From positions 1 to 41,601 of the forward strand of contig JBDRPD010000088.1 in NCBI GenBank assembly GCA_043827405.1: a stretch of DNA of 41,601 bases, given 5' to 3'. The stretch comes from Elusimicrobiota bacterium. Lineage in GTDB: Bacteria; Elusimicrobiota; Elusimicrobia; UBA1565. Below the pieces are notes generated by a model, which was not told the DNA's origin, made no database searches, and was given only the letters and a program-made list of their open reading frames with translations. Positions 7,683 through 35,352 of this stretch are shown here, in pieces; the stretch's first letter is position 1; each line of letters opens with the position of its first letter. Both the position numbers and the translations under genes were made by a program.

Positions 7683-8491
7683 GATCTCCGCAGGTCGCGG
7701 ATCCTCCCGCCCCGCCTGCAGTAGGTGACGACTATCAGCAATAGGTAGAGAACGTAGTAGCAGAGAAAGAACGTCAGCAGCACGTCGACGCATCTCAGCA
7801 CGTAGGCCGGAATCAGCAGCAGGTAGTGCGTCTCGCGTACTCTGAGGTTGTGGCTGATCCGGCTCGCGTTAAGTTTGATCAAAGCCAGAGGGTCGCCTTT
7901 CTGCGGCACATGGCCGGAGATATCGGGCTTCGGAGTGCCGGGCAGCTTGTTCCATTCTTCCCTCAGCAGGGAATCGAAGATCTGTTCTGTATAGGCGATA
8001 TAGCTGCAAAGGAGCGCGGTCAAAGTGCCCAGCGCGACCCAATAAATCGCCCCTCGGCCGAACGGTTCGGGCCAATGCGCCAAATGGGGGTGGCGGTACA
8101 GCATGATGCCGAGTACGGCCCAGAAGCCCATGTCCACCCATGCCATGAGCGAATCGAGGAACCGTCCGTAAGGGTTCTGTGTCTGCATTACGCGCGCGAT
8201 GCTTCCGTCGACGCAGTCCAGGAGATTGAATAGGCAGAGGAGGGCGATGCCCAGAGGAAGCAGGCAATTCTGCGCGCCCAGCAGGAAGAAATAACCAAGC
8301 GCGGCCGCCAGCCCGGACAACCAGGATACTGCCTCGGAGGTCAGGCCCAACCGGATACCTAGCCAGGTCGCGAGGAAGCCGACGGGACGGAAGACAAACC
8401 GGCTCGCGGGAAGAAAGCGCTCATAGTCGTTCTTCCAGGCATGAGCGTCCCGGATATCGCGCAGCGTCGGAAGCGTCGTTTTGTCTGCCAC
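7679..8491 (-). CDS. CDP-alcohol phosphatidyl/phosphotransferase family membrane protein
   Basis: LDCVDGSIAR(x8)GRFLD signature; multiple hydrophobic segments. Confidence 0.85.
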   Translation of the reverse strand: MADKTTLPTLRDIRDAHAWKNDYERFLPASRFVFRPVGFLATWLGIRLGLTSEAVSWLSGLAAALGYFFLLGAQNCLLPLGIALLCLFNLLDCVDGSIARVMQTQNPYGRFLDSLMAWVDMGFWAVLGIMLYRHPHLAHWPEPFGRGAIYWVALGTLTALLCSYIAYTEQIFDSLLREEWNKLPGTPKPDISGHVPQKGDPLALIKLNASRISHNLRVRETHYLLLIPAYVLRCVDVLLTFFLCYYVLYLLLIVVTYCRRGGRIRDLRRS

Positions 8492-8520
8492 TAGAGACTC
8501 TTTTTGCTGAATTTTACTGA

Positions 8521-9123
8521 TTATAACAGATTATCTGAATGACAGGATTTTACCGCCTCACAGTATTTCGAATGCCGTGTCCGCATATCGCCGAAGCGAG
8601 TTGTCAATGCGTCAGCGTCCGCTGCCGTGTCTGTTTTGACCTCCAGGATGCATGATTTCTCATGCGACTTATTGCGCGCCCTGAGTTCGCTGTCGATCGC
8701 TGAGTATTCAATATGATAGTCGAGGGTGAACCGGCTGCCGCTTCTGTCGGTAAAATATTCTCTCCTGTAGGCGACAAGCACTGTCGGGGCCACCGGGAAC
8801 CCGGCGATATCGCGACAGAGCGCCTGGATTTTCTTAAAATTCGCTCCCGCGATCTTAATCTGTTCCTTTTCCCTGAACGTCGCCAGCGTTTTCTTGAGTT
8901 CGATGGCGCCGGCATCCGAAAACCGTCCTTCGCCGTACCAGCGGTATCTGATTTTCATGCGGGGGACGGTTCCTTCCTCGCTGTCAGTGAAGAAGTCAAA
9001 GCCGCTGGTGTCAAGATAAATGGAGTTGATCCGGCGCATCGGGAAGCAGTGGTAGGCGCCGATTTTTGCCAAATGGGCGCGGTGCTCGCTGTAAAAGCCT
9101 CTGAATTTAATTTCATTACGCAT
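8521..9123 (-). CDS. VTC/CYTH-like (polyphosphate polymerase domain) protein
   Basis: MRNEIKF, INSIYLDT, RMKIRYRWYG, YRREYF, RFTLD, ILEVK, SKY. ATG 9123 lies 1 nt after the upstream stop. Confidence 0.82.
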   Translation of the reverse strand: MRNEIKFRGFYSEHRAHLAKIGAYHCFPMRRINSIYLDTSGFDFFTDSEEGTVPRMKIRYRWYGEGRFSDAGAIELKKTLATFREKEQIKIAGANFKKIQALCRDIAGFPVAPTVLVAYRREYFTDRSGSRFTLDYHIEYSAIDSELRARNKSHEKSCILEVKTDTAADADALTTRFGDMRTRHSKYCEAVKSCHSDNLL

Positions 9124-9124
9124 G

Positions 9125-11488: not shown

Positions 11489-11628
11489 ATCACCCTTCTT
11501 GATCAGGATCTCAATAGTCTCGGGAACGTCCGGCCGGTACAGCGGTTTCCAGGCGGCGCCTGCCGCACCGGCGGTGAGCAGGACCGTGATGACGCTTGGG
11601 ATAAAGGCGAAGTTGATAGAATTAATAA

Positions 11629-12291
11629 CTATACTGAGGAGAAGCCGAGATTGATTTCGATGACATCAGGAAGTGCGCCGCAGCGATTTTTGAATTCCAA
11701 AGCCTGCTCCATGTCCTCAAGGACAAAAACCAGGGTCGTCTGGACATCCTTCCCTGCTTTGCTTTCGTCATAACTGCGAAGGTACTTAAAATAGTCCTTG
11801 AGCTGCTGCGGTTTCTCGAATGAGCCGCGCAGGCGCAAGATGGCTTCCGCGTGATTTTGCGTCTGGCCCACCTCGGGCCTGATCAGGCGTGGGAACGCCG
11901 CCGACAGATACTTCAGCAGCGGCCCGACGGATGCCAGAAATAACGTCAGGTAGACCGCATGTCTAAGGTGGACTCCCGCGACGATCCCGATGGTAATAAG
12001 CCCGAAAAGCAGAGAGAGCTCGTACCCGCTCTTCACCGGGGTCCGGTAGCGGATAATTGACAGCGCGCCGATCATTCCGAGCGAGAGAAAGAAATTGGTG
12101 GCGATGGTCTTGGTAATAACCAACGCTATCACCGGCAGCATTAACGACATCGCGACCATATTCCTGTTGCGGAGGAACGCGTTTAGGCTGAAGCTATGGG
12201 CGAAGAAGACGAACGCGCCCATGAGAGCGACGCCGATGCCGCATACAGCAAGGCTGTTTTGCGCGAACATATACAGCTCATTTATTGTCAT
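11629..12291 (-). CDS. DUF4956-family membrane protein
   Basis: LSLGMIGALSIIRYRTPVK signature; several TM helices; adjacent to CotH-like and VTC genes. Confidence 0.85.
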   Translation of the reverse strand: MTINELYMFAQNSLAVCGIGVALMGAFVFFAHSFSLNAFLRNRNMVAMSLMLPVIALVITKTIATNFFLSLGMIGALSIIRYRTPVKSGYELSLLFGLITIGIVAGVHLRHAVYLTLFLASVGPLLKYLSAAFPRLIRPEVGQTQNHAEAILRLRGSFEKPQQLKDYFKYLRSYDESKAGKDVQTTLVFVLEDMEQALEFKNRCGALPDVIEINLGFSSV

Positions 12292-22117: not shown

Positions 22118-23533
22118 TTAGGCCCTCGAGATGTGAGCTGCGGAAGTGCCAGCCGACTTCCCTTGGCCCTCCTCTACGCCACCCGAATAGATACGCATTG
22201 CGATAGCGGTCAAAAACCAGAACGGCTCCATCATTCGAATGATGATGAATGTATTGACGCCGATGGATTGCACCAGGAGTGCGATATAGACGCATAGCAG
22301 GCCGAAGACCAATCCCTTTTGCAGGGGGGCCTCCGTCGTGCGCCAAACGCGCCATAGCCGGATCAAGAGCCCCGACATAATGGCGACCCAGCAGGCAAAG
22401 CCGAGCAAGCCCGTCTCACCGATTACCAGCGGGATCTGGGTGTCGCACAATCCGACTCCCGTGACCCCATAACCGAAGAAGGGATGCCGCGGGATCCAAT
22501 CCTTGCGCAGCTGACGCCATTTACGCAGTCGTACCGCCGCGGAGGATTCGATGGTGACGTCCTTCCCCCCCAGGCGCAGCACCTCCTGGCCGCCCGCCGC
22601 CACAAAAGTAAAGGCAACTCTGGCGCGGGCCAACTTAATGTAGTCCTTGTAGAATATCGGCGCGATATAGAGGGCGATCAGAGCGCCCATCAGCAAGAGC
22701 AGGACTCGGCGCCCCTTTCCTAATGCGATCATCGCCGCGATCATTACTACTGCCGCGAAGTATGTGGACCGGGAGGTCGTCGCGAGCATCGGAGGAATGC
22801 AGAAAATGAGGACCGCCAACAATGTTAGGCGGGTTCTGGCATGGTTATGGTACAACGCGATGCCGCCCATTATGCCGCAGGCAATCAGGAGGTAGCCTCC
22901 TAATGTCGCGGTCTCAGTAACGCCTTGGTCTATATCGAAAGGACAGTAAGGCGCTTGGCCCTGAGCCATCATGTAGTACGCAAATACCAGCACCGCACCG
23001 AGGGTAATGAGTCCGGCCCACAGGAATATGCGGCTCCGGTCAAAGTCCTCGATCAAGTGATACGCCATGTAGTAGAGCATGTAGTATTGCGCATACTTCA
23101 ATAGATACATGGTCACGGGCAGAATGCCCAGCCTCCCCTCGATCAAGCCGATTAGGCTCGACACCACCGCGACCGCGATATATGCCAGCATGGGCTTGAT
23201 GAGCGGGACTTTGAAGCCGACGAGCGGCATCTTCTTGAGGGCCGCGATCGTGAACCACGATGTAAAGATCAAGAGCAGCATAATATCGTCGAATCGGATC
23301 TCGATTGAACGCAGACCTAGTCGGCCAAGAGAAAACGCCGGGGAAAGCAGCATCGTAAAAACTAAGATAATGAGACCCGCCCGCGGACGGACCAGAGTGA
23401 CCAGCCCCGCTAGCAGGCCCGTTACGGCCATGGGGGCGCCCCAGCCGGGGACGGTGAAGCCCAGCCACACGAAAACGAAGCTCAGCACCAGGCCGAGGCC
23501 CAGCAGCCCGAGGTTTAGCGCGGTAATATGCAT
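22118..23533 (-). CDS. O-antigen ligase/polymerase (Wzy/WaaL-like) membrane protein
   Basis: About 12 hydrophobic segments, TTSRST, S...R...W...HPFFGYG, ETGLLG; directly downstream of wzc. Confidence 0.8.
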   Translation of the reverse strand: MHITALNLGLLGLGLVLSFVFVWLGFTVPGWGAPMAVTGLLAGLVTLVRPRAGLIILVFTMLLSPAFSLGRLGLRSIEIRFDDIMLLLIFTSWFTIAALKKMPLVGFKVPLIKPMLAYIAVAVVSSLIGLIEGRLGILPVTMYLLKYAQYYMLYYMAYHLIEDFDRSRIFLWAGLITLGAVLVFAYYMMAQGQAPYCPFDIDQGVTETATLGGYLLIACGIMGGIALYHNHARTRLTLLAVLIFCIPPMLATTSRSTYFAAVVMIAAMIALGKGRRVLLLLMGALIALYIAPIFYKDYIKLARARVAFTFVAAGGQEVLRLGGKDVTIESSAAVRLRKWRQLRKDWIPRHPFFGYGVTGVGLCDTQIPLVIGETGLLGFACWVAIMSGLLIRLWRVWRTTEAPLQKGLVFGLLCVYIALLVQSIGVNTFIIIRMMEPFWFLTAIAMRIYSGGVEEGQGKSAGTSAAHISRA

Positions 23534-23560
23534 TGTCTGCGCGAGGCTGCGTGAGGTCCG

Positions 23561-25471
23561 TTAAGTTTTCTTATCGTCTTCTTCTCGCGTGTAGTAGTCG
23601 TAATATTCGGCGGACCGGTAATAGCCGTAGCGCGGCTCGAGTTCCTTGGGGCGCACATCGTTGAGTACGATGCCGAGAGGGCGCGCCTTGACGGTGAGCA
23701 GTTCATCGCGGGCGCGCTTGAGCGCGGAGCGCGCCATGCGCCCCGCCTGGTAGAACATGACCACGCCATGCGCCAAGGGTCCGATCAGCAGGCCGTCGGC
23801 GAACAGCAGCAGCGGCGGGCAGTCGAATATCACCCAATCGAATTGCTTTTTGGCGTTGGCGAACAGATCGATGAATTCGCGCCGCTTAAAGAACTCGGTG
23901 GGGCTGACCTTGGCGCTCCCGGCGGTCAGCAGCGAGAGATTCTCTATGCCCCGGGCCGACAGCGGGTCCGCCATCTGCGCCGAGCCGACCATGAAATCGG
24001 TGACGCCCTTCAGCGCGCTTTCCATCGGCTTGCCGCCGATGACCACATCGGTCAATCCCATATCATTGGGCACTCCCAGCATGCGGTGCAGGGCGGGCCG
24101 CCGCAGGTCGCCGTCGATCAGGAGCACGCGCACGCCGCTCTGTACGGCGGCGAGCGCGAAGTTCATCGATGAGATGGATTTCCCTTCGCCGATTCCCGAA
24201 GAAGTGAACAGCAGCGAGCGCCCCGTCTGTACCTGCAGGTGGCTTTCGATGTTGGCGCGCAAAGAGTGGTAAGCCTCGACCGCGGGCGACTGCGGCTTGA
24301 GATGGATGATGAGCCGGCGTCGGATAACCTCGGTCGCCTCATGCCGGCCTACTTTAAGCCAGGCGAACAGATCGAATTCGCTCTCGCCGTCCGCCAGCGG
24401 GATATGGGGGATCAGGCCGAGCACCGGCATTTCCAGCGCCTTTTCCACGTCCTCGACGGTCTGCAGGGACGTATCCAGATTTTCCGCCAGGAAGGAGAGA
24501 ATAAGGCCCAGGATAAGACCCAGGATGGCGCCGAACATCATATTGCCCATGCGGTCGGGACGGATCGGTTTGGAATTGGGCGTCGCCGTCGCGACCATAT
24601 TGCCCATGGACACAATTAACGCGGATGCCACCTTCTGCTCTTCGAACTGTTTCGCCAAGGAAGTATAGATCGTTTCCTGGATGCGCAGGTCGCGCTCAAT
24701 GCGGGCCGCTTCCATCCCCTCCGCGGGCAGGGTCTTCATCTGTCTTTGCAGCACCTCGATCTGCTTGGTCAGCTGGAGCACGTCGGGATGTGCCTCCATG
24801 TAGCGGTCCAGCAATACCTTCCTCCTGCCTTCCATGTCGAGCAGCTTGTTCGCGAGGCTGCCGGCCGCCAGCGACCCCGTAGGAGAATCCTCTGCCAGGC
24901 GCCTTTTATCCTCTTCGAGCTGGAACATGATCGCTTCGATCTGCGCTTTGCGCCGCGTGATATTCTTGAGCGCTTGCTCATTGGACTGTCGGCGCGTTTT
25001 GCGGTCCAGGTCGATATAGCTTTGGGCTATCGCATTGGCCAGCGCGGCCGCTTTTTCCGGGCCATCCGCCTCGGCGTTGATATGGACCAAGGTCGTTTCC
25101 TGCAGCTGCACCGCCTTCGTATTGCGCATGGACTGCGCGATCAATGTGCCCTTTTGTGACGGCGGAGTCTTATCGTTAAGCGTCCCCATCGCTTCCAGGG
25201 CCGCCTCGGCGACAGCCGCCGATTCAATAACCTGCAATTGGGTGGTAATTCCGGTATACGGATCCCAGGCTCCGAAAGAGCCGAACTTCCCGGTTTCTCC
25301 CGGCGGCGGTTCGATGCGCAGCGTCGCGAAGGCGCCGTAAACAGGTTTCTGATAGATGCTGTAGATGCCGGTGATCGTGACGGTGACGATGAAAGCGAAG
25401 AAGATGAGCCAGCTTCGCCGGCGCAGGATGCGCCAGTAATCTTCCAGACTGAGCTCGACCGGTAAAGCCAT
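23561..25471 (-). CDS. wzc: Polysaccharide co-polymerase / BY tyrosine autokinase (Wzc/GumC type)
   Basis: Two TMs flanking a coiled-coil region with HPDV; EAYHSLR, Walker A GIGEGKS, IDGDLRRP, IFDCPP; C-terminal Tyr cluster YGYYRSAEYYDYY. Confidence 0.92.
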   Translation of the reverse strand: MALPVELSLEDYWRILRRRSWLIFFAFIVTVTITGIYSIYQKPVYGAFATLRIEPPPGETGKFGSFGAWDPYTGITTQLQVIESAAVAEAALEAMGTLNDKTPPSQKGTLIAQSMRNTKAVQLQETTLVHINAEADGPEKAAALANAIAQSYIDLDRKTRRQSNEQALKNITRRKAQIEAIMFQLEEDKRRLAEDSPTGSLAAGSLANKLLDMEGRRKVLLDRYMEAHPDVLQLTKQIEVLQRQMKTLPAEGMEAARIERDLRIQETIYTSLAKQFEEQKVASALIVSMGNMVATATPNSKPIRPDRMGNMMFGAILGLILGLILSFLAENLDTSLQTVEDVEKALEMPVLGLIPHIPLADGESEFDLFAWLKVGRHEATEVIRRRLIIHLKPQSPAVEAYHSLRANIESHLQVQTGRSLLFTSSGIGEGKSISSMNFALAAVQSGVRVLLIDGDLRRPALHRMLGVPNDMGLTDVVIGGKPMESALKGVTDFMVGSAQMADPLSARGIENLSLLTAGSAKVSPTEFFKRREFIDLFANAKKQFDWVIFDCPPLLLFADGLLIGPLAHGVVMFYQAGRMARSALKRARDELLTVKARPLGIVLNDVRPKELEPRYGYYRSAEYYDYYTREEDDKKT

Positions 25472-25481
25472 TAGGTCTCCA

Positions 25482-26414
25482 TCAAAGCAGGAGTATGACC
25501 GCCGCCACGGTGGTGATTAAGTTCAGCAATGTTGTCCATGGCGTAATAAGCGCTATTTTCTGGTTCGCCTTCGCCAGCGCGATATCCGGCACATAGATAA
25601 TGTCGCCGGGACGCAGCGGTACGTCACGCGCCAGGTTGCCGTCCAGGACGCTTGCGAAGTCCACGTCGAAGACCTCGCCGCCCTCGCGGAAAATGCGAAT
25701 AGCATCGATCTTGGCGTAGGAGCCGAGTCCATTGGCGCGGGTGACGACATCGAGCATCTTCATGCCCGCGACATAATCATAGGAGCCGGCGTTCTTGATC
25801 GCTCCCCAGATGAAAACCATATTGACGCGGAGCGGCACCTCGACGCGGTCGCCCGGCATGAGCGCATAATCCTGGGACAGGTCGCCGCGCGCCAGGATGG
25901 CGTCCACGTCTACAATTTTGATTTCCTGATCATCCGCGGGGCCCCGGTAGACGCGAACGTTCTTGCGGTCCGAGTTGTTGGTGAATCCGCCCGCATTCAC
26001 AATGACCTCCGAAAGCGACATCCCTTCCACGTGGCGAATAAGTCCGGGCGCACGAATCTCGCCGGTGAGAATTACATGCCGGCGCGAGAACTGCACCACG
26101 CTCAGGCTTACCTTGGGCTTGCGGAAATAGAGTCCGAGCTGCTTTTCAAGCAGGCGGATCGTTTCCGTCACGCTCTTGCCGCGCACATCAACGCGGCCGA
26201 GCGTCGGCAAGACGACGCTGCCGTCTTGGCCGACTACGCGCTTGCCGCTCAGCTCCGCCTGGGGATAAACCGAGATGTCGAGCATGTCGCCCGAGCGGAT
26301 GTGATAGTTGGCATCTGAATTGATATCGCTGGTCTTGTCGGCGGCCGCATTGAGGTCCGCCGGTTGGACCGCCGCCGCGATTAGCGCGGAAATAATTAAG
26401 GGCAGTATCTTCAC
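25482..26414 (-). CDS. wza: Polysaccharide export protein (Poly_export + SLBB domains)
   Basis: YHIRSGDMLDISVY, DGSVVLPTLG, GEIRAPG, LMPGDRVEVP, LRPGDIIYVP. GTG 26414 with GGAGG 5 nt upstream. Confidence 0.85.
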   Translation of the reverse strand: MKILPLIISALIAAAVQPADLNAAADKTSDINSDANYHIRSGDMLDISVYPQAELSGKRVVGQDGSVVLPTLGRVDVRGKSVTETIRLLEKQLGLYFRKPKVSLSVVQFSRRHVILTGEIRAPGLIRHVEGMSLSEVIVNAGGFTNNSDRKNVRVYRGPADDQEIKIVDVDAILARGDLSQDYALMPGDRVEVPLRVNMVFIWGAIKNAGSYDYVAGMKMLDVVTRANGLGSYAKIDAIRIFREGGEVFDVDFASVLDGNLARDVPLRPGDIIYVPDIALAKANQKIALITPWTTLLNLITTVAAVILLL

Positions 26415-26535
26415 ATATGCCTCCAATGGATAACGCTACATTAACAGTCCTTTGCGGTTTTTTCAATACCCCGTATACATTTTTGTTACACCCCTTGGAT
26501 CTTCCCGGCTCGTGTTCCTTAATACACATAACTCC

Positions 26536-26598: not shown

Positions 26599-27315
26599 AT
26601 GGTTACCATTGAGACCCGCGGGCTGGCGAAAGCGCTGGGCGGACGCAAGGTATTGCGTGATGTCAATTTTTCGCTCGAGGCGGGCAAGGCCGCCTGTCTG
26701 GTCGGAGCCAACGGCAGCGGCAAGACCACCTTCCTCAAGATTCTGGCCGCGGTGCTGCTTCCCGATGCGGGAACGGTGCGGATATTGGATCATGAGCTCC
26801 AATACGCGCCCGCCTGGATCAGGGGAAACGTCGGCTGGCATGGCGGCGAGGAGCGCAGCATGTATGCCCGGCTCACCTGCCGGCAAAACTACCAATTCTT
26901 CGGCGCCCTCTATGGGCTGTTCGGCGAAAGGCTCGCCGCAAGCGTCGAGTCCGCCGCCGGCCTGCTGGGCCTCTCCGATCTGGACCGGCCCTACCAGGAG
27001 CTTTCCGCCGGCATGAAGCAGCGCGCCCTGATGGCGCGAGCCATGCTGCATGATCCGCCGGTGCTGCTGCTCGACGAGCCGACCAAAAGCCTGGATCCGT
27101 TGGCCGCCGAGCGCTTCCTGCAGGATACCGTTCTGCCCGCGGCCCGCCAGGCGAATAAGACGGTGCTTATGGCAACGCACCGGCTGGAGGAAGCGGAGCT
27201 CATCGCCGATGAGATTTGGCTGCTCGCGGACGGGAAGCTGGCGCGTGCTTCCAGCCGCAGCCGCCGGGATGTGCTCAAGCTGCTTAAAATGAGCGGCCGG
27301 GAGCAGGCATCGTGA
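26599..27315 (+). CDS. ABC exporter ATP-binding protein
   Basis: GANGSGKTT, LSAGMKQR, LLLDEPTKSLDP, ATH. ATG 26599. Confidence 0.92.
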   Translation: MVTIETRGLAKALGGRKVLRDVNFSLEAGKAACLVGANGSGKTTFLKILAAVLLPDAGTVRILDHELQYAPAWIRGNVGWHGGEERSMYARLTCRQNYQFFGALYGLFGERLAASVESAAGLLGLSDLDRPYQELSAGMKQRALMARAMLHDPPVLLLDEPTKSLDPLAAERFLQDTVLPAARQANKTVLMATHRLEEAELIADEIWLLADGKLARASSRSRRDVLKLLKMSGREQAS

Positions 27316-28124
27316 TTTTAGCGCGCCAGCTCTTGGCTTTTATGCGCAGAGACATTCAGCTGGAGCTGAGCTATCGCTTTGCCGTCGGGCTGCATGTATT
27401 CGGCATGCTGGCGCATCTGCTGACCTTCTACTATATCGGGCGCCTATTGCCGGAACAGGGCAGCTCCTGGCTTAGCGAGTACGGCGTATCCTATTTCCCC
27501 TTCGTCCTGGTCGGCATCGCCTTCACCGGCTTTCTCGGCTTCGGTTTGGTCGGCTTTTCCGTCGCGCTGAGAAATGAGCAGCAATACGGCACCCTGGAAG
27601 TCCTGCTGGCCAGCCCGACCCCCGCCTGGCATATCGCGGTGCTGGCGACTTTCGCCGGCTATGGGGTGACGCTGTTGGAGAGCGTCGTATATCTTGGGGC
27701 TGGATCGATATTCCTGGGAGTGGATTTCTCCCATGCCGCGTGGCTGACTGCCGCGGTGACCTTGCTGCTCGTGGTCGCCTCGTTCTCGGCCCTGGGCGTC
27801 CTCGCCGGCAGCTTTATTCTGTACTTCAAGCGCGGCGACCCGGTCAACTGGATTATGGGTACCTTGTCGCAGTTTCTCGGCGGCGTCTATTTCCCGGTGG
27901 CGGTTCTGCCGTCCTGGCTCGGCGGCTTGGCGCTGCTCCTGCCCGTCACGCATGGCCTGCATGCCATGCGGCTGGCGCTGTTTGAAGGAGCGGGCTTGGG
28001 CGAGGTGGCGCGGCCGCTGCTGATCCTGCTCGGCTTCAGCGTATTCGGCTGGCCGCTGGCGCTGGCGGCTCTGCGCGCGGCGCTCGATTCCGCTCGTCGC
28101 AGATCCAATCTGAACCATTACTGA
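27312..28124 (+). CDS. ABC-2 type exporter permease
   Basis: Six TM-like segments, EQQYGTLE.LLASP, LGGVYFPVAVLPSWL, LPVTHGL; GTGA overlap with the ATPase. Confidence 0.9.
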   Translation: MILARQLLAFMRRDIQLELSYRFAVGLHVFGMLAHLLTFYYIGRLLPEQGSSWLSEYGVSYFPFVLVGIAFTGFLGFGLVGFSVALRNEQQYGTLEVLLASPTPAWHIAVLATFAGYGVTLLESVVYLGAGSIFLGVDFSHAAWLTAAVTLLLVVASFSALGVLAGSFILYFKRGDPVNWIMGTLSQFLGGVYFPVAVLPSWLGGLALLLPVTHGLHAMRLALFEGAGLGEVARPLLILLGFSVFGWPLALAALRAALDSARRRSNLNHY

Positions 28125-28971
28125 GCAGCGCGCGCAGCGCTCTGTAGAGCAGATGCGGCGGGCGAAAAAAAAGATATAGAAGCGGATATTCGGTCATATA
28201 CCGGCGGCGCAGAAAATCCCGCTCCGGAAACAGCCAGCGGCCGACGGCATGCAGGCGGTTGGGCGCGGTCCACAGCCGGAGCAGGTGGCCCAGCCCGGTA
28301 TTCGCCCCATGAGAGAGGGCGGAAAGGAAAAGCCGCTCTTCGATTCCCCCCGCCGCCGGCAGCGCGCTCGCCAGTTCCGGCGGCGTCTTGAGTTTCAGCG
28401 CTCTTAGACTGGCGGTGAAGGCCGCGCCCAGGCGGGCACGGCGCAGACGGCGGGCGACCGCCGCATAGTCCAGCGGCAAATCCAACAGCCGGCGCAGGTC
28501 TTCCTTGTCCGACGCATCCCAGGCGGCATGATGCACCGCGCAATGTGCCACCACATGGATTAGGTGGTCCTCCCAACTGGGGCTGCGGAAGCTCGACCCA
28601 TCCTCTTCGACGGTCAAGGCGCGGCGCCAGAGTGCTTCCACCCCCGATTTATCCAAGTACCAGATTCCCGACTCAACATCCAGCTCGGTCCGCCCGCGGC
28701 GCATAGCATGCGGATCGTCCGGCTTGGGCGCATAGCCGAGTTCCGCCAACAGCCGGCGGGCCTTGTACGCGTCGGGAGGACGGATCAATAGGTCAATATC
28801 TTCCATCGCCCGCATATCGGGACGCGGGTAGAGCTCGCGGGCGAAGACAATGCCCTTGAGGGCTAGAAATGGAATAGCTGCGGCATCAAACGCATGCGCC
28901 GCCTCTTCGAAGTCTTTGAACAAGAGCAGGTTGGCGGAGAGAACAGGCTTATTCAGCGGTGGAAGAGTCAT
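28036..28971 (-). CDS. Nucleotidyltransferase family protein (NTP_transf_5 type)
   Basis: LALKG....ELYP....R.MEDIDLLI signature; last gene of the kinase/PqqD/rSAM operon. Confidence 0.85.
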   Translation of the reverse strand: MTLPPLNKPVLSANLLLFKDFEEAAHAFDAAAIPFLALKGIVFARELYPRPDMRAMEDIDLLIRPPDAYKARRLLAELGYAPKPDDPHAMRRGRTELDVESGIWYLDKSGVEALWRRALTVEEDGSSFRSPSWEDHLIHVVAHCAVHHAAWDASDKEDLRRLLDLPLDYAAVARRLRRARLGAAFTASLRALKLKTPPELASALPAAGGIEERLFLSALSHGANTGLGHLLRLWTAPNRLHAVGRWLFPERDFLRRRYMTEYPLLYLFFRPPHLLYRALRALLSNGSDWICDERNRAPRAEPPAPAASRIR

Positions 28972-29314
28972 GGCTTCGGTTTCCAAACAGCGGCCGCAGG
29001 CAGGCGAAGATCGTGCTGGCCGTCAGACCGTAGAGCAGGCCGGAGAGGCCGCAGGAGAGCGGACATCCGGACTTAAGCCGTCCGACTACGCATGCAGGCT
29101 CAATCTTGTGCCAGCCGATAGTCGCCGCATCGTCGAAGACCCATAGCCCGCCGCGGCCGGCACGGGCGAAGCGATGCAGCAGCAGCTTCCCGCCGACGCG
29201 GTACGCGACGATATCTCCGGGATGCAGGGCGGACGCCGGGATCTCATGGACCTCGGCGGTATCCCCCGCCTGCAGATATGGGCGCATGCTGCCGCCGGTC
29301 AAGGTCACTCTCAT
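28949..29314 (-). CDS. S24/S26-family (signal-peptidase-like) peptidase, putative leader peptidase
   Basis: GGSMRPYLQAGD (catalytic Ser box), PGDIVAY, LLHR (His-type general base), VVGRL. Confidence 0.75.
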   Translation of the reverse strand: MRVTLTGGSMRPYLQAGDTAEVHEIPASALHPGDIVAYRVGGKLLLHRFARAGRGGLWVFDDAATIGWHKIEPACVVGRLKSGCPLSCGLSGLLYGLTASTIFACLRPLFGNRSHDSSTAE

Positions 29315-29330
29315 GGGCGCGTCCGGACTT

Positions 29331-29489
29331 CTAGGATTTCTTGCGCAGACTGCGGCAGCTGGGTGAGCCCACACCCGTAGGAGAATTGGTTAGGCACTTG
29401 CCGCAGGCGAGCGCCGCGCTTTCCAGAATTTTCTCCGACTTGATGGAGGGTTTCTTATAGGGTTTCTTTTTCTTCTTGTCAGCCATCAT
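29331..29489 (-). CDS. Putative RiPP precursor peptide (52 aa)
   Basis: MMADKKKKKPYKKPSIKSEKILESAALACGKCLTNSPTGVGSPSCRSLRKKS. GGAG upstream, start overlaps the rSAM stop, YxxPxI leader motif, Cys/Ser/Thr-rich core. Confidence 0.78.
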   Translation of the reverse strand: MMADKKKKKPYKKPSIKSEKILESAALACGKCLTNSPTGVGSPSCRSLRKKS

Positions 29490-30567
29490 CGCTCTCCGCT
29501 GCGCCCAGTGCGGCGCGGACGCTGTCCTGCACGCGCATATCATAGTCGGCCGGCTGCAGGGCGTCGCCGCTTTCCAAGTATGCCAGGCCGGGGCAGTTAT
29601 TGCAATAGGCCGCTGAGCCTGTGGTCTGCTTCCTATGCTTGAGTTCGCGAATCTCCCGCAGGACAGAAGAGCCGTGCCAGATATCCTTGAACGCTTCGCC
29701 GCGTATATTACCGCACTTTACCGGCCACTGCAGGCAGGGGTTCACTTCCCCATAAGGATCGATGGCGCCCGAGTTTCGGCCCGCGCTGCATAGGTAGTCT
29801 TCGTACTCGCCGCTTTGGAACTCTTCGACCGCCGCCAGGTTGTCCCGCGTCGTGATGCGCGGATCGGCGAAGATCTCGTCGAGCTCGGCCGCGGGAAGCC
29901 GGTGCTCCAGGTTGTTCTTTTTGCCGCTGTTGCGCGGCGTCAAAGTGGGATCGAACAGGCACCGCGCTCCGAGCTCCTGCGCGAAATCCTGCAGCCAATG
30001 CCGGTCGACGGCGTTGAGCGTCATCAGCGGCACCTTGATCGCTACCCGCGTTCCAGCGGCCCGCAAAACTTTGATGCCGCGTACCGACCGGTCAAAGGCT
30101 CGCGCACAGCGGGTTACCGCGGCATGCGTCTGCTTCCTGCCGTAGAGGCTGACATCGACGCGATCGATTCCCATCGCCGCCAGCTCGCCGGCAATTTCCT
30201 CATTGACATGCATCGCGGTGGTGAATATCCGCACATTGAAGGCGAGCTCGCGGGCATAATGCGCGATCTCCAGAGTGTCCGGCCGCAGAAAGACTTCCCC
30301 CCCGGTCAGGGCCAGGTACATGCAGCCCGCGTCGGCGAGCTGTTTGAGGACGCCCTTCCACTCCTTGGCGGTGAGCTCTTCTTTCCGCATCCGGCGCAGC
30401 TCGTCCGCATCGCCGGGCTCCTGGGTTTCGTCGAGATAGCAGTGAACGCAGCGCAGGTGACAGCGCCGCGTCAGCTCCAATATCATGGCCAGCGGCACGA
30501 AGTTCTCGTCGGAGAGCTTGAACAGCTGCCAGGCGGGCGAGAGCTTATCGATGTTCTTAGCCATCAT
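29479..30567 (-). CDS. Radical SAM enzyme with SPASM/Twitch domain (peptide-modifying type)
   Basis: ELTRRCHLRCVHCY (CxxxCxxC), LTGGEVFLRPD, VSLYG, CSAG...IDPYGEVNPC...GNI...F.DIW, CNNCPG. Confidence 0.92.
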   Translation of the reverse strand: MMAKNIDKLSPAWQLFKLSDENFVPLAMILELTRRCHLRCVHCYLDETQEPGDADELRRMRKEELTAKEWKGVLKQLADAGCMYLALTGGEVFLRPDTLEIAHYARELAFNVRIFTTAMHVNEEIAGELAAMGIDRVDVSLYGRKQTHAAVTRCARAFDRSVRGIKVLRAAGTRVAIKVPLMTLNAVDRHWLQDFAQELGARCLFDPTLTPRNSGKKNNLEHRLPAAELDEIFADPRITTRDNLAAVEEFQSGEYEDYLCSAGRNSGAIDPYGEVNPCLQWPVKCGNIRGEAFKDIWHGSSVLREIRELKHRKQTTGSAAYCNNCPGLAYLESGDALQPADYDMRVQDSVRAALGAAESDDG

Positions 30568-30814
30568 CCGCCAGCAGGTTTTTGCCGCGCAGTTCCTTAA
30601 TAAAGGCGCGCATGTCCCGCTCCGCCTGTGCCGGCGCGACGTCGAATTCCGCCGCCAGGGCATGCGCGATCTCGGCGTCGTCCGCGCCGGCGCACAGCTT
30701 CTTCCAGATGAAGGTCCCCGTCTCGCTGAGGCTGTGCAAGGTGCTGCTGCGGGGGTCCATCACGAAAACTCTTCCTTCTATGAGTCGATGCGCTAATTTG
30801 GGATCAGGTTTCAT
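30557..30814 (-). CDS. PqqD family / RiPP recognition element (RRE) protein
   Basis: 85 aa; LHSLSETGTFIW...EIAHALAAEFDVAPAQAERDMRAFIKEL...LL. Confidence 0.9.
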   Translation of the reverse strand: MKPDPKLAHRLIEGRVFVMDPRSSTLHSLSETGTFIWKKLCAGADDAEIAHALAAEFDVAPAQAERDMRAFIKELRGKNLLADDG

Positions 30815-31629
30815 TTGCCGAGCACCTCCCGCAGTCGCGGCCAAAGTGAGGTTTTCTTGTTAAACGAGAAGCGGTACGCCGGAGCTTTCTTGACCAAATC
30901 CAGGATGACCGTCCAGGCCCGGGCGAGATCGCGGTCACTCTGGCCGGGAAACCAAAGCAGGCACTTGAGCGCCTCGCGCTGGGCATCGGCGGCCGACAGC
31001 GGCCGCATCGCGTCGGTTCCCTTGCGTCCCAGAAAGCATAGCCCCATGATACGTCCGCTGACGCGCCGCGACGGCTTGCGGCCATTGCCCCAGAAGGGTG
31101 TGGAGAAGGCATCAAACCCGTTGCGGCGGCGACGGATGCCGATGAGCTCGTCGCCCAGCGTCCGCCGTCCGAGCCGGCGGCCCAAGGTCGTCTTGCCGGC
31201 GCCCGATTTGCCGGGAAATACCAGCGCCTTGCCGCTGTTCGCGACCGCGGCCGCGTGCAGAAACAGGCAGCTCGGCCGACGCGCCGCCAGCAGGCCGGCA
31301 TAGATTACGCGCAGGGCGGCATCAAAGGAGTAGACATTGGGCCAGATGCGCAGTATGCCGAGGCGCGATTTACGCATGAGCAGCAGCTGCGCGTCGCCGC
31401 GATGGAAACGGAAGGATTTATTATTGGATTTTATCGTCGGCCGAAACGGTTGTACCTGGCGGTCTGCCGCCGGCCTTGTCGTCTCCACTTTGATCATATA
31501 ATGCGGCTTGCGCTTTGCCAAAAAAAGCCGATAACGTGTCCGCAGCGTTTCCCGCAGCTGTTTGCCGTCGACCTGGAAGCCCAGCCGAAGGCCGCATAAT
31601 TCCGTCGTAAATATATGGGTTTTATTCAT
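30811..31629 (-). CDS. HprK-related P-loop kinase (similar to ScmC-type and lasso-cluster kinases)
   Basis: FLHAAAV....ALVFPGKSGAGKTTL...LGDE...STPFWG. Confidence 0.82.
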   Translation of the reverse strand: MNKTHIFTTELCGLRLGFQVDGKQLRETLRTRYRLFLAKRKPHYMIKVETTRPAADRQVQPFRPTIKSNNKSFRFHRGDAQLLLMRKSRLGILRIWPNVYSFDAALRVIYAGLLAARRPSCLFLHAAAVANSGKALVFPGKSGAGKTTLGRRLGRRTLGDELIGIRRRRNGFDAFSTPFWGNGRKPSRRVSGRIMGLCFLGRKGTDAMRPLSAADAQREALKCLLWFPGQSDRDLARAWTVILDLVKKAPAYRFSFNKKTSLWPRLREVLGK

Positions 31630-31690
31630 CCTTCCGCGCGCCGTTACTTTAGTTTATCAAGTTGCGGTATCTCTTTGTATAATGCTGGAG

Positions 31691-34402
31691 ATGCCGCGAC
31701 CGCGTTTTTTCGCTCTTTCCTCTATAAGTGGTGCCGCCTGCCTGATTATTACCTTGGCTCTGAGCGCCGGGGCTCAGATCAATAACCTCACCCGCTTGAG
31801 CGCTCTGTCCATCCAGTCGGAGGCGAACTCCCGTGCCGTGGTGATAGACCCCGTCGCCGGCTTCGCTTATGTGGGAACTTATATGTCGCCGGCCCAGGTG
31901 GTAAAGGTCAAGCTCAGCGACTTCTCGCGCGTCGGCGTCATTACTCTGGAGGCGGGCGAGGACTCCATCTACTCGGCCGTTATCGACACCGCCAATGCCT
32001 GCGCCTATTTCGGTACCGACACCGCGCCGGGCAAGATCATCAAAATCAATCTGACTGATTTTACCCGCGCCGGCGCCTTGACCTTAATCGGCGGCGAAAA
32101 TCAGCTGCGCACGGCGGCTGTCGACGCCGGCGCCGGCTTCGCCTATTTCGGCACCGCCACCTCGCCGGGCAAGGCGGTGAAGATAAACCTGAGCAACTTT
32201 ACCCGCGTCGGTGCCGTGACCTTCGCGGCCGGCGAGAATCAGCCGCTTACGGTCAGCATCGACTCCAGCACCGCCTATGCCTACTTCGGCACCAATACCT
32301 CGCCGGGCCGGGTGGTCAAGGTCGATCTCGGCACCTTTACGCGCGACGACGCCCTCACCCTCAACTCCGGCGAGAATACGGTCGAGTCGCTGCTCATCGA
32401 TCCGACCACCGACTTCCTCTATGCCGGCGCCAATATGGACTCCTCCACCGGCGTCGTCGTCAAGATCGACCGCGGCGACTTCTCCCGCGTCAGCACTTTG
32501 ACCTTCAATGCCGGCGAGGGACCGATCGCCTCGGCGCTGATGGATCACTCCGGCGGCTTCGCCTACTTCGCCACCGACGAGTCGCCCGGCGGCGTGACCA
32601 AGGTCCAGCTCAGCGACTTTACCCGCGTCAGCAGCGTCACCTTCGCCGCCGGAGAGAACGACCTCCAGGCGGCGGCGCTCGACGCCGCCGGCGGCTTCGC
32701 CTATTTCGTGACCAATACCATGCCGAGCCGCGTGGTCAAGGTCCAGCTCAGCGACTTTACGCGCAGCGGCGCGCTGGCGCTGCATGGCGGCGGTCTGCCC
32801 AAGACGGCGGTGATCGATCCCTCCGGAGGCTTCCTGTACTACGGCACCGAGACATCTCCCGGCAGCGTGGTCAAGGTACGCCTGAGCGACTTCAGCCGCA
32901 TCACGACCTTGACCCTGGGAGACGATGAGGTCGAGCTCAAGGCATCGGTGATCGACCCCGAAAACGGCTTCGCCTACTTTACCGCCAATACCGCGCCCGG
33001 CGAAGTGGTCAAGGTCCAGCTCAGCGACATGACGCGGATCAGCTCGGTGACCTTCAATGCCGGGGAAGACGAGCCGCAGGTCGGGGTGATCGACACGGCC
33101 AACGGCTTCGCTTATTTCGCCGCCGATACCTCGCCGGCGCAGATCGTCAAGGTGCAGCTCAGCAACTTTACCCGCGTCGGCGTCCTGACTTTGAACGCGG
33201 GCGAGAACGAGCCGCGCTCGGCGCTGATTGACGCCGCCGCCGGCTTCGCCTATTTCGGTATGAATACCACGCCGGGCATTGTGGTCAAGGTCAAGCTCAG
33301 CGATTTTACCCGCAGCTCGGCGCTGACCTTGAACGCCGGCGAAAATGAGCTCACTTCCGCCGTTCTGGATACGGCCAACGGCTTCGCCTACTTCGGCGCC
33401 AATACCTCGCCGGGCAAGGTGGTCAAGGTCAAGCTCAGCGACTTTACCCGCGTCGGCGCCGAGACCTTGCTTGCCGGCGAGGACTACCTCGTCACCGCCG
33501 TTCCCGTCCCCGCCAACGGCTCCGCTTACTTCGGAACCAATACCTCGCCGGGGAAGGTGGTCAAGGTCGACCTGAGCGATTTTACCCGCGACGGGGTCCT
33601 CGCCATGAACACCGGCGAGAACCAGCCGGCCTCGGTCCTCTACGATGCGGTTCTCGGCAACGCCTTCTTCGGCGTCAGCCCCAACGACGTGGTCAAGGTC
33701 AATCTGTTCGACGCCGCGCAGTCCGTGAGCGCGGCAGGCGGGACCTTGGCTTTCGATCAGCCGGCTGGACGGGTGCAGCTGGTCCTGCCGACGGGCGCTT
33801 TCAGCGGCAGCGTCGCCATTACTTTGGGCACGCCCACATCTTTCCCCGGCGGCGGCACGGCGGCGGGCGCGGCGCTGACCGGCACCGGCGTCGGCGTCCA
33901 GGTCACCGTGGCGGGCGGCGCCCAGCCGCAGAAAGCCGCCAGCATCAGCGTCGCCTACCGGGACGCCGATGTGGCCGGCCTCGACGAGAGCAAGCTGGTG
34001 CTGGCCCGCTACCATCCCGGCCGCGGCGTCTGGGTGCCTTTGGTCTCGCTGCCCAATCCGGCGGGCAATACCGTAACCGGCTTTACCGATCACTTCTCAA
34101 TATTTCAAGTCATGCAGGCGGGCGCCTCCGACTCGCTGGAGAAGGTGAAGGTCTTCCCCAACCCCATGCGGCCGGTGCGCGGCCACCGGACCATGACCTT
34201 CGCCAATTTGCCGTCCAATGCCCGGCTGCGGATCTACAGCAAGCTCGGCGAGCTGATCAAGGACCTCGCGGCCAATGCCGCCGGCATGGCGCTGTGGGAC
34301 GGCACCAATCAGGCCGGCGCCGAGGTCGCCTCCGGCGTCTACTTCGTGCTGGCCCAGAGCGGCGGCGACAGCCATACCTTCAAGGTCGCGGTGCAGCGGT
34401 GA
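31691..34402 (+). CDS. Secreted repeat protein (14 x 46-aa beta-propeller-like repeats) with a C-terminal FlgD/T9SS-like sorting domain
   Basis: Signal peptide ending LALSAGA-Q; repeats like GFAYFGTNTSPGKVVKVxLSDFTR; C-terminus VKVFPNP...IYSKLGELIK...WDGTN..G..VASGVYF. Start is ATG 31682 or 31691. Confidence 0.85.
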   Translation: MPRPRFFALSSISGAACLIITLALSAGAQINNLTRLSALSIQSEANSRAVVIDPVAGFAYVGTYMSPAQVVKVKLSDFSRVGVITLEAGEDSIYSAVIDTANACAYFGTDTAPGKIIKINLTDFTRAGALTLIGGENQLRTAAVDAGAGFAYFGTATSPGKAVKINLSNFTRVGAVTFAAGENQPLTVSIDSSTAYAYFGTNTSPGRVVKVDLGTFTRDDALTLNSGENTVESLLIDPTTDFLYAGANMDSSTGVVVKIDRGDFSRVSTLTFNAGEGPIASALMDHSGGFAYFATDESPGGVTKVQLSDFTRVSSVTFAAGENDLQAAALDAAGGFAYFVTNTMPSRVVKVQLSDFTRSGALALHGGGLPKTAVIDPSGGFLYYGTETSPGSVVKVRLSDFSRITTLTLGDDEVELKASVIDPENGFAYFTANTAPGEVVKVQLSDMTRISSVTFNAGEDEPQVGVIDTANGFAYFAADTSPAQIVKVQLSNFTRVGVLTLNAGENEPRSALIDAAAGFAYFGMNTTPGIVVKVKLSDFTRSSALTLNAGENELTSAVLDTANGFAYFGANTSPGKVVKVKLSDFTRVGAETLLAGEDYLVTAVPVPANGSAYFGTNTSPGKVVKVDLSDFTRDGVLAMNTGENQPASVLYDAVLGNAFFGVSPNDVVKVNLFDAAQSVSAAGGTLAFDQPAGRVQLVLPTGAFSGSVAITLGTPTSFPGGGTAAGAALTGTGVGVQVTVAGGAQPQKAASISVAYRDADVAGLDESKLVLARYHPGRGVWVPLVSLPNPAGNTVTGFTDHFSIFQVMQAGASDSLEKVKVFPNPMRPVRGHRTMTFANLPSNARLRIYSKLGELIKDLAANAAGMALWDGTNQAGAEVASGVYFVLAQSGGDSHTFKVAVQR
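31829..33709 (+). repeat. Intragenic tandem repeats, about 138 bp (46 aa) x 14
   Basis: Recurring ggcttcgcctatttcgg / gtggtcaaggtc...ctcagcgactttacccgc at about 138-bp spacing, in frame. Confidence 0.9.
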
Positions 34403-35352
34403 GCCGTCCCGCGCTCGCGCTTGCCGTCATGCTGCTGGCCGCCGGGACGGCACGCGCCGTCGGCTTCGGCTCGTCGGCCAAGGGAACCGCGGCCGCCGAC
34501 TTCCTGCAGCTCGGCGCCGGCGCCCGCGCCGCGGCCATGGGCGAGGCCTATACCGCGGTCGCCGACGAGACCACCGCGCTCTACTGGAACCCCGCGGCCA
34601 TGACCCGGCTGGAAGGGCGCTCCGCCGTCTTCATGCATGCGCCGTATGTGGATTCGAGCCACTTCGACTACCTGGCCTATGCCCAGCGGCTCGGCGAGCG
34701 CGACGCCTGGGGCGCGAGCCTGCAGTACTTCTCCGCCGGCGGCATCGCCGAGACCGACGAAACGGGAACCGAGATCGGCACCTTCAGCCCGCGCGATTTC
34801 GCCTTCAGCGCCGGCTATGCCTACCGCGTCGAAGAGGGGCTGCTGCCGGCTTTTCTCAACGGCTATTCCTTCGGCTTGTCCTTGAAATACGTGCGCGCCG
34901 CCGTCCGCACCGCGGCCAATACCGCCGCCGCCGACCTGGGACTGCTCTCGCCCGCCTACCTGGACGGACGCCTGCGCGCGGCGTTTACGATCACCAATAT
35001 GGGCGGCGACCTGAAGTTCGAGGAGAAGTATGAAGATCTCCCCCTGGCCTTCAGGTTCGGCGGCGCCTTGCAGATAAGCGAGCGTTGGAATGCGGGGCTC
35101 GATTTCGGCCTGCCGAAGAACAATGGACCATATGCCGCCTTGGGAACGGAGTATATTCTGCCCGTCGCTAAATCCATAAATCTCGCCGGACGCGCCGGCA
35201 TCAACAGCCGCACTATCGGCGATGTCGACGGATTTACCGGTTTTTCCATGGGCTTCGGCCTGCTGCATGACAGGTACGGTTTCGACTACGCTTTTGTCCC
35301 TTTCGGCTCGCTAAGCCTGACCCATCGCATCTCGATTTCCTGCCGTTTCTAA
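34399..35352 (+). CDS. PorV/PorQ-like (UPF0164) outer-membrane beta-barrel protein
   Basis: Signal peptide, FLQLGAGARAAAMGEAYTAVADE.TALYWNPA motif, amphipathic beta strands, DYAFVPFG.L..THRIS and terminal Phe. GTGA overlap with the upstream gene. Confidence 0.85.
   Translation: MSRPALALAVMLLAAGTARAVGFGSSAKGTAAADFLQLGAGARAAAMGEAYTAVADETTALYWNPAAMTRLEGRSAVFMHAPYVDSSHFDYLAYAQRLGERDAWGASLQYFSAGGIAETDETGTEIGTFSPRDFAFSAGYAYRVEEGLLPAFLNGYSFGLSLKYVRAAVRTAANTAAADLGLLSPAYLDGRLRAAFTITNMGGDLKFEEKYEDLPLAFRFGGALQISERWNAGLDFGLPKNNGPYAALGTEYILPVAKSINLAGRAGINSRTIGDVDGFTGFSMGFGLLHDRYGFDYAFVPFGSLSLTHRISISCRF

Follow-up and report, generated by a model that had tools for sequence, protein, structure and literature searches.

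A 41,601-nucleotide stretch of contig JBDRPD010000088.1 from an Elusimicrobiota bacterium, referred to as a whole as the window, carries an eight-gene cassette belonging to a real, widespread, and unnamed family of ribosomally synthesized and posttranslationally modified peptide (RiPP) systems that has a testable pathway and is apparently undescribed. The cassette has the make-up of an RRE-dependent RiPP system: a precursor with a conserved leader and core is encoded next to a RiPP recognition element (RRE) and putative modifying enzymes. Sequence comparisons tip the balance toward a previously undescribed pathway in which a kinase and transferase tailoring module of the lasso peptide type is joined to a radical S-adenosylmethionine (rSAM) core. 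The family is most likely common in groundwater and soil bacteria. It is large, its precursor is readable, and it occurs in mostly uncultured phyla that are abundant in those habitats.

Six of the genes lie on the minus strand. They encode, in order, a kinase with the PEPCK/HPr kinase fold (positions 30811 to 31629; 272 amino acids), called from a fold match and conserved His, Lys, and acidic residues; a stand-alone RRE of the PqqD family (30557 to 30814; 85 amino acids; PF05402); an rSAM/SPASM enzyme with an intact CxxxCxxC motif (29479 to 30564; 361 amino acids; PF04055 and PF13186); the precursor peptide (29331 to 29489; 52 amino acids, or 51 from the second ATG); an S26-clan peptidase of the Sec11/SipW type (28949 to 29314; 121 amino acids; PF00717; Ser9, His47, and Asp62); and a PsmN-like NTP_transf_5 protein (28036 to 28971; 311 amino acids; PF14907), here called the transferase, with a DxD motif at residues 58 and 60. 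From kinase to transferase, the junctions are overlaps of 4, 8, and 11 nucleotides, a 16-nucleotide gap, and a 23-nucleotide overlap. On the plus strand, the ATPase of an ATP-binding cassette (ABC) transporter (26599 to 27315; 238 amino acids; PF00005) precedes an ABC-2 permease (27312 to 28124; 270 amino acids; PF01061) that converges on the transferase gene and overlaps it by 89 nucleotides. This is the arrangement of eight genes given in a preliminary description made from the sequence alone, and Pfam models agree with its calls: PqqD (65 bits, cutoff of 23.4), Radical_SAM (69.8), SPASM (43.1), Peptidase_S24 (25.6, cutoff of 23.3), NTP_transf_5 (114.3), ABC_tran (98.4), and ABC2_membrane (51). 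None of the window kinase, RRE, rSAM enzyme, peptide, peptidase, or transferase reached an NCBIfam cutoff; the top model for the RRE was lasso_PqqD_Strm, at 43.8 against 70. A scan for promoters and terminators gave counts at the level of shuffled sequence. The same genome encodes a second PqqD protein at a separate locus (contig C3; L002:299-2688), where genes for a polyprenyl synthase and a short rSAM protein flank it and a possible small open reading frame (ORF) lies ahead of it.

The precursor gene is genuinely protein coding, and its product follows a fixed grammar. The window peptide consists of a basic N-terminus, a YxxP leader, and a core with a CxxC motif, a third Cys, and a C-terminal C-x6-Ser; of 14,422 short ORFs in this genome, only its own matches the full grammar. 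Among 53 homologues, the invariant residues are encoded by synonymous codons and all three stop codons are used. In the 322 unique homologues obtained by pooling all sets, the Tyr of YxxP stands 18 residues before the invariant Cys in 316, and the stretch around that first Cys reads E-T-x-A-L-x-C-G-K, with Leu at 97% and Lys at 95%. The C-terminal residue is Ser in 309 of the 322 (background, 6.7%), and the last Cys lies 7 residues from the C-terminus in 263 and 8 residues in 30, whatever the length of the loop between the first and last Cys, which is mostly 6 to 20 residues and exceeds 50 in some peptides. Cores contain two (196 peptides) or three (123 peptides) cysteines, and in all 54 Elusimicrobiota peptides the terminal Ser comes exactly seven residues past the last Cys. 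The peptide had been singled out at the start as a Cys/Ser precursor; the two cysteines, the Lys, and the terminal Ser are conserved, but richness in Ser is not a family trait. Because the profiles used to gather the peptides take in the C-terminus, the collected sets favor the terminal pattern; outlying short and long precursors, found through their leaders, still keep it. A profile search matched 597 clusters at 50% identity, and no family in Pfam or NCBIfam fits the precursor.

Several variants of the precursor were seen. Three Acidobacteriota genomes carry 6 to 12 leader-matching ORFs each (L292:8667-9880, L275, L257, and L259). Those that were read encode Gly/Ser-rich precursors of about 88 amino acids that share the leader and finish in C-x7-Ser, and three stand in tandem beside a cassette. 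A subfamily with precursors of 37 to 40 amino acids has A-R-A before the core (L260, L262-L272, L293, L295, and L296), and its rSAM enzymes, where read, have lost most of the cysteines of the putative second auxiliary cluster (AuxII). In one Omnitrophota genome (L247:1-1653), the peptide gene lies away from the enzymes, behind a gene labeled secretin-like by reading of its sequence, and a second, orphan peptide copy follows a gene for a secreted Cys-rich protein (L248:1-1623).

The gene set is conserved together across phyla. Matches to the rSAM enzyme at E values of ≤1e-40 occur in 67 of 401 Elusimicrobiota genomes, including the window genome, and in none of the nine genomes of that genome's own family; the peptide profile matches 7 of 101 genomes of its order. 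Loci extending up to 8 kb on each side were taken from 60 of 67 non-self matching places, seven having been left out, most of them near contig ends. These 60 Elusimicrobiota loci contain the RRE in 59, the S26 peptidase in 53, the peptide in 53, the kinase in 50, the ABC permease in 6, and the transferase in 2, and the five-gene core of kinase, RRE, rSAM/SPASM enzyme, peptide, and S26 peptidase is complete in 47. A second set comprised the best 80 of 561 relatives found in species genomes with an alignment of nine rSAM sequences (an alignment of 42 was too diverse for the locus scan). By record title, 77 of these 80 are Acidobacteriota, with one each of Methylomirabilota, Omnitrophota, and a record labeled Thermomonas; since the nine-sequence scan returned mostly Acidobacteriota, other phyla are undersampled. 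Here the RRE is present in 78, the S26 peptidase in 77, the kinase in 77, the peptide in 63, the transferase in 44, and the permease in 22; 60 of the best 80 have the five-gene core, and 12 have all eight genes. In 37 metagenome loci of at least 8 kb, from a scan among whose matches the contigs of the closest rSAM relatives (P0019-P0022) did not figure, the counts were 36 for the kinase, 36 for the RRE, 32 for the S26 peptidase, and 28 for the peptide. Searched in its own right, the peptide profile matched 25 of 301 Acidobacteriota genomes (at most 23 candidates scored per genome) and 1 of 201 Omnitrophota genomes, the seed genome only. A conserved adjacent peptide and a co-conserved gene set, both of which the preliminary description had named as checks on its proposal, are therefore present, the peptide in 53 of the 60 and 63 of the best 80 rSAM loci. 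Its hybrid pathway is likewise supported, not as a one-off but as a large family, in which the Elusimicrobiota transferase and ABC pair usually occupy a second locus.

The proposed pathway begins with the RRE, which very probably binds the YxxP leader and presents the core. In a study of lasso peptides, leaders bind to the RRE via Tyr(-17) and Pro(-14), along with Leu(-12) (PMC10368454), and the Tyr-to-Cys distance of 18 would make a small residue the first of the core if the lasso numbering of Tyr(-17) and Pro(-14) is applied. The kinase in all likelihood phosphorylates the C-terminal Ser of the precursor, and the NTP_transf_5 protein may, by a modest margin of plausibility, cap the Ser phosphate with a sugar (hexose) in the manner of PsmN. 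An about equally favored step is the formation by the rSAM enzyme of a bond between the sulfur of a core Cys and a carbon atom in a residue nearby, through a putative first auxiliary cluster (AuxI) held by three cysteines with an open site; the first candidate for the partner is the invariant Lys at the second position past the first Cys. The S26 peptidase, on the cytoplasmic face of the inner membrane, probably cleaves off the leader beside the A-L-[A/S/T]-C motif, and the ABC-2 pair quite likely exports the product, which would be a small, cyclic, phosphoglycosylated, basic peptide acting at or beyond the cell surface. By analogy, the system would work like the tailoring module of paeninodin and pseudomycoidin grafted onto a putative ranthipeptide-type core. 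If so, Ser phosphorylation and phosphoglycosylation would extend beyond lasso peptides, and a small substrate would be on offer to settle the function of NTP_transf_5 proteins.

The case for the tailoring steps rests on the kinase and transferase. The window kinase, earlier called HprK-like, passed no family cutoff (TIGR04352, 32.8 against 200), but its structural model (pLDDT, 92.7) matches PEPCK (Z score of 14.0, root mean square deviation of 4.6, 241 residues aligned) and HPr kinase (Z score of 9.7, deviation of 2.8, 118 residues aligned). Its sequence gave weak P-loop and PEPCK matches only in the PDB and no match against plasmids. His125, Lys146, and Asp160 are present in all 126 homologues, and position 161 is Glu in 124 and Asp in 2; as modeled, the protein has an HPr kinase/PEPCK fold with a His, a P-loop Lys, and an acidic pair, and the His-Lys-Asp-Glu set of the family fits the His-Lys-Asp-Asp motif in the published description of lasso kinases. 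Asp58 and Asp60 of the transferase (the DxD motif) are kept in all 84 homologues. Both family profiles match proteins of a paeninodin-family cluster from Paenibacillus, in which the precursor is recognized by the paeninodin model and has Ser as its last residue: the kinase with an E value of 4.6e-12, in a small local set, and the transferase with one of 1e-62. The likeness to the tailoring set of paeninodin and pseudomycoidin clusters, proposed from the sequence at the outset, thus holds. In the reports on these peptides, a C-terminal Ser is the residue that PadeK and PsmK phosphorylate, and addition of a hexose to its phosphate requires PsmN (PMC6993621, PMC9266682).

Related modules were also seen elsewhere. 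A plasmid of the archaeon Halopiger xanaduensis carries a lasso cluster with a kinase and an NTP_transf_5 gene (L384:7932-15705), lying among glycosyltransferase, sulfatase, and flippase genes and with a precursor that ends in Thr. At another locus (L208:1105-4712), one copy of the cassette faces, head to head, a lasso-type cluster with a cyclase-like gene, an RRE, and a kinase.

Seven cysteines make up the SPASM pattern of the rSAM family, as they do in CrpC, which is described as making thioethers (PMC13692751). In sequence searches of the PDB, the family profile matched SkfB best (E value of 2.3e-41) and PqqE second. A search of plasmids gave three distant records, the one examined being a YcaO/TfuA cluster. 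In a quick tree, the window enzyme groups with three metagenome proteins (SH-aLRT of 100), next to enzymes from its own order (90), a position that suggests a patchily distributed but inherited gene rather than a fresh import. Of 349 homologues, 311 could be parsed for cysteines, 38 being left out mostly because of truncation; 283 have the full pattern and 28, a few of them truncated sequences, a reduced one. Reduced patterns occur in several branches, and the putative AuxI cysteines are retained even where those of AuxII are lost. Such natural losses offer a test of what the second auxiliary cluster is for, and the clade, in which no member is named, may carry out new chemistry. One 787-amino-acid ORF (L190:6714-9077) joins a partial PqqD match to an rSAM domain, apparently with the kinase ahead of it, and is either a fusion or an assembly artifact.

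Several points weigh against the pathway as drawn. Within 8 kb, the transferase gene adjoins the cassette in only 2 of the 60 Elusimicrobiota loci (and in 44 of the best 80 others). In favor of a link, PF14907 matches at E values of <1e-13 occur in 61 of 66 rSAM-positive and 31 of 334 rSAM-negative Elusimicrobiota genomes, but that cutoff was picked after the data were seen, and related genomes are not independent. The direct activity of PsmN was left open by its authors (PMC6993621), and the lasso kinase BsfK is described as targeting Ser3, so that other sites are possible (PMC10368454). The residue before the first Cys is A, S, T, or G in 88% of the unique peptides and hence not always small. 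Two cysteines whose loop ranges from 6 to more than 50 residues would fit a plain disulfide equally well. The window rSAM enzyme keeps the putative AuxI residues Cys259, Cys277, and Cys324 but lacks three of the family's four putative AuxII cysteines, and without those ligands it may differ from the rest of the family or be impaired. Finally, the best named NCBIfam rSAM models, AhbD (130 bits), NirJ2 (112), and MftC (104), all far under their cutoffs, are decarboxylases or C-C bond formers, not thioether formers.

Because these are the best-scoring named rSAM enzymes, MftC/AhbD-like chemistry is the main chemical rival. The pathway would be the same, but the rSAM enzyme would carry out oxidative decarboxylation of the C-terminal (phospho)Ser or create a C-C bond, with the invariant Lys as one possible site. 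Addition of the last Cys to the new terminus might follow, in which case it would account for the fixed C-x6-Ser spacing; otherwise, the cysteines would form a disulfide after export. The constancy of the distance from the last Cys to the C-terminus at any loop length agrees with this alternative, which we nevertheless regard as unlikely: the scores of all the named enzymes are far below their cutoffs, SkfB and PqqE head the PDB matches, the three putative AuxI cysteines survive the loss of AuxII, and a few homologues lack the distal Cys spacing (L297).

As modeled, the peptidase belongs to clan SF (S24/S26) and is of the endoplasmic reticulum type, with the Ser-His(-Asp) residues and the LexA/S26 fold (pLDDT, 93.2); the best PDB match of its profile is SEC11A (E value of 7e-12). 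It shares the Ser-His-Asp motifs and fold of the Sec11/SipW signal peptidases but has a C-terminal helix (residues 89 to 110) and no N-terminal membrane anchor, and its family differs further in its tie to the peptide gene and its inferred cytoplasmic location. Among 128 homologues, the nucleophile is Ser in 116, Cys in 11, and Ala in 1; the 11 with Cys, giving a Cys-His pair on a signal peptidase fold, are all from Elusimicrobiota (L045, L052, L059, L061, L075, L078, L079, L083, L084, L087, and L091). The peptidase gene directly follows the peptide gene in 108 of the 114 loci having both (51 of 52 and 57 of 62 in the two sets). In eight loci, the peptidase forms the N-terminal part of an in-frame fusion that continues with a signal-like segment and a secreted protein of large size (L039:9327-16964, L043:9445-10173, L053:9458-12325, L054:3587-5017, L055:1-3369, L057:1-3540, L077:9357-16939, and L065:9199-11913). 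The cargo is of two unrelated kinds: seven loci have a giant Ig-repeat protein (up to more than 2,500 amino acids), and the eighth has a BNR/FlgD_ig protein. The Ig-repeat giant also occurs as a separate following gene (L040, L050, L079, L082, and L084). The position of the peptidase ahead of the signal segment in the fusions would place it on the cytoplasmic side. If the pathway is right, an S26 enzyme would take the part of an RRE-linked leader peptidase.

The same genes could instead be two unrelated modules, in which the S26 peptidase serves the neighboring secreted protein, the transferase and ABC pair serve polysaccharide, and only the kinase, RRE, and rSAM enzyme act on the peptide. The Sec11/SipW-like character of the peptidase, its frequent contact with genes for secreted proteins, and the separate locus that the transferase and ABC genes share with wza or wzc in most Elusimicrobiota are consistent with such a division. 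We consider it improbable, as it is the peptide gene, not cargo, that precedes the peptidase gene, the fusions point to the cytoplasmic side, and in the second phylum the transferase and ABC genes join the cassette without wza or wzc.

The surroundings of the cassette bear on where a single tailoring pathway of this kind would deliver its product. On its left are wza, wzc, and Wzy_C-domain genes (22118 to 26426, minus strand), called from NCBIfam and Pfam and recurrently linked, which head a polysaccharide locus of about 26 kb that also contains wzm/wzt and glycosyltransferase genes and has a GC content of 0.56, compared with 0.63 for the genome. On its right (31679 to 35352, plus strand), called in the same way, are genes for a secreted repeat protein with a C-terminal domain like those of the type IX secretion system (T9SS) and for a PorV/PorQ-family protein; the same pair is found beside the cassette in L045, L059, L285, L287, and L288. 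Transferase loci were opened in 40 of the 61 Elusimicrobiota genomes: a PorV-like gene was present in 23, the ABC pair in 16, and wza or wzc, at most 6 kb from the transferase, in 14. Of the 16 with a permease, 13 have it convergent on the transferase. Three of four further genomes of the same order have wza or wzc beside the cassette. A secreted Cys-rich protein of 600 to 1,100 amino acids, with a conserved C-terminal motif and no Pfam or NCBIfam match, is encoded in 39 of the best 80 loci, often directly upstream of the peptide gene (L218:444-2318 and 38 others of L163-L242). In the ESM Atlas, both the peptide and the secreted neighbor fall in unnamed clusters only. In Elusimicrobiota, genes for HD-GYP-like proteins lie beside 23 of 61 cassettes and 15 of 40 transferase loci, and a GGDEF-HD-PilZ protein flanks 21 of the best 80 other loci, which raises a possible link to cyclic di-GMP; examples of these neighbors are at L087:1169-2290, L156:8276-9499, and L171:6476-9256.

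The recurrent wza/wzc and large secreted protein neighbors hint at a surface role, and the modified peptide might be a building block of the cell surface rather than a diffusible signal or antibiotic, with a phospho-sugar tail that serves as acceptor or anchor for the neighboring polysaccharide, or with a part in linking large secreted proteins into a matrix. This concerns function and is compatible with the chemistry proposed above. In its favor are the frequency of wza or wzc near the transferase and the cassette, the giant secreted proteins fused to or following the S26 peptidase, the Cys-rich protein family, the repeated linkage to PorV and T9SS-like cargo, the HD-GYP-like and GGDEF neighbors, and the Halopiger plasmid cluster, where the same kinase and transferase sit among glycosylation genes. 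Yet wza occurs within 8 kb of only 3 of the best 80, mostly Acidobacteriota, loci, the transferase loci of the largest Elusimicrobiota family show neither wza nor wzc, and surface genes form islands for many reasons; we hold this building-block reading to be rather unlikely. Equally speculative is a peptide-primed surface glycan system common to Elusimicrobiota and soil Acidobacteriota, in which a thioether-closed peptide would offer its C-terminal phosphoserine as the attachment point for a sugar or polysaccharide, be exported, and become attached to the Wza/Wzc polymer as well as to giant secreted proteins, of which some form one polyprotein with the peptidase. Such a system would explain why kinase and NTP_transf_5 modules sit in glycan loci.

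Membership in, or decay from, a named system is very improbable. The cassette shares with paeninodin and pseudomycoidin clusters (PadeK, PsmK, and PsmN) a lasso-like leader in the YxxP register, a discrete RRE, an HPr kinase-like protein with a His-Lys-acid-acid set, a DxD NTP_transf_5 protein, an ABC exporter, and a C-terminal Ser. It differs in having an rSAM/SPASM enzyme, an S26 peptidase, a Cys core, and a two-gene ABC-2 exporter and in lacking the lasso cyclase and B2 protease, an absence already pointed out in the preliminary description. The transglutaminase-like B2 protease (PF13471) was not detected in the window genome, and in the 66 cassette-bearing genomes there were two weak matches and none over the cutoff; a cyclase-like ORF is in range in only 1 of the 60 and 2 of the best 80 loci. 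An asparagine synthetase-type (AsnB) fusion protein does lie 22 kb from the cassette in the window, scoring 191.9 against 525 for NF033535. A lasso macrolactam calls for Asp or Glu at core position 7 to 9; the window core contains neither residue, and 76 of the 322 cores hold any. On these three grounds, the cassette is not a lasso system of the paeninodin type.

The SynChlorMet cassette (TIGR04248-04251) has two rSAM enzymes. The resemblance to it that had been suggested holds insofar as an HprK-like protein (ScmC), a PqqD-like protein (ScmD), and an rSAM/SPASM enzyme occur together and cross-match weakly, but it is distant only: all models are far under their cutoffs (ScmC, 23.3 against 125; ScmD, 29.1 against 100; ScmE, 77.8 against 400; ScmF, 64 against 400), and the window cassette has a single rSAM enzyme, a clear precursor, an S26 peptidase, and a transferase. 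The ACGX system (TIGR04340) was rejected because its rSAM model scored 74 against 400 and 34 peptides matched no precursor model, and GeoRSP with scores of 28.5 against 100 (TIGR04302) and 75.8 against 400 (TIGR04303). A match to a characterized pathway, which would have undone the original proposal, was thus not obtained with any of these four systems. Ranthipeptide and sactipeptide maturases (CteB, PapB, SkfB, and CrpC) resemble it in the seven-Cys SPASM pattern of the family, a putative three-Cys AuxI, presumed RRE dependence, and a Cys-containing substrate; the window system differs in its separate RRE gene and its two or three core cysteines. Its Cys pattern fits the ranthipeptide type by analogy to CrpC, with no family model at its cutoff. 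To our knowledge, kinases, transferases, and S26 peptidases are not part of those systems. MftC of mycofactocin biosynthesis and the heme synthase AhbD, the best-scoring named rSAM enzymes (104 against 265 bits and 130 against 500 bits), differ in gene set and precursor.

No description of the gene set was found in searches of an open-access library; novelty is claimed in that sense, as subscription papers and the supplements of large rSAM-RiPP atlases could list the family. The RRE-Finder report mentions some 300 discrete RREs of the lasso type found together with rSAM enzymes, which it regards as false positives, and its text supplements contained no terms matching the window gene set (PMC7470986). 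A different, uncharacterized rSAM cluster from Parabacteroides, with two nucleotidyltransferases, is shown in a review (PMC9389541).

The polysaccharide locus of the window has further unusual genes. The AsnB-type fusion (1666-4671, minus strand) is a 1,001-amino-acid protein that joins the amidotransferase to a GT4 glycosyltransferase, and the interval 7679-12291 (minus strand) contains genes for a CDP-alcohol phosphotransferase, a VTC-domain protein, a 787-amino-acid protein of unknown function, and a DUF4956 protein.

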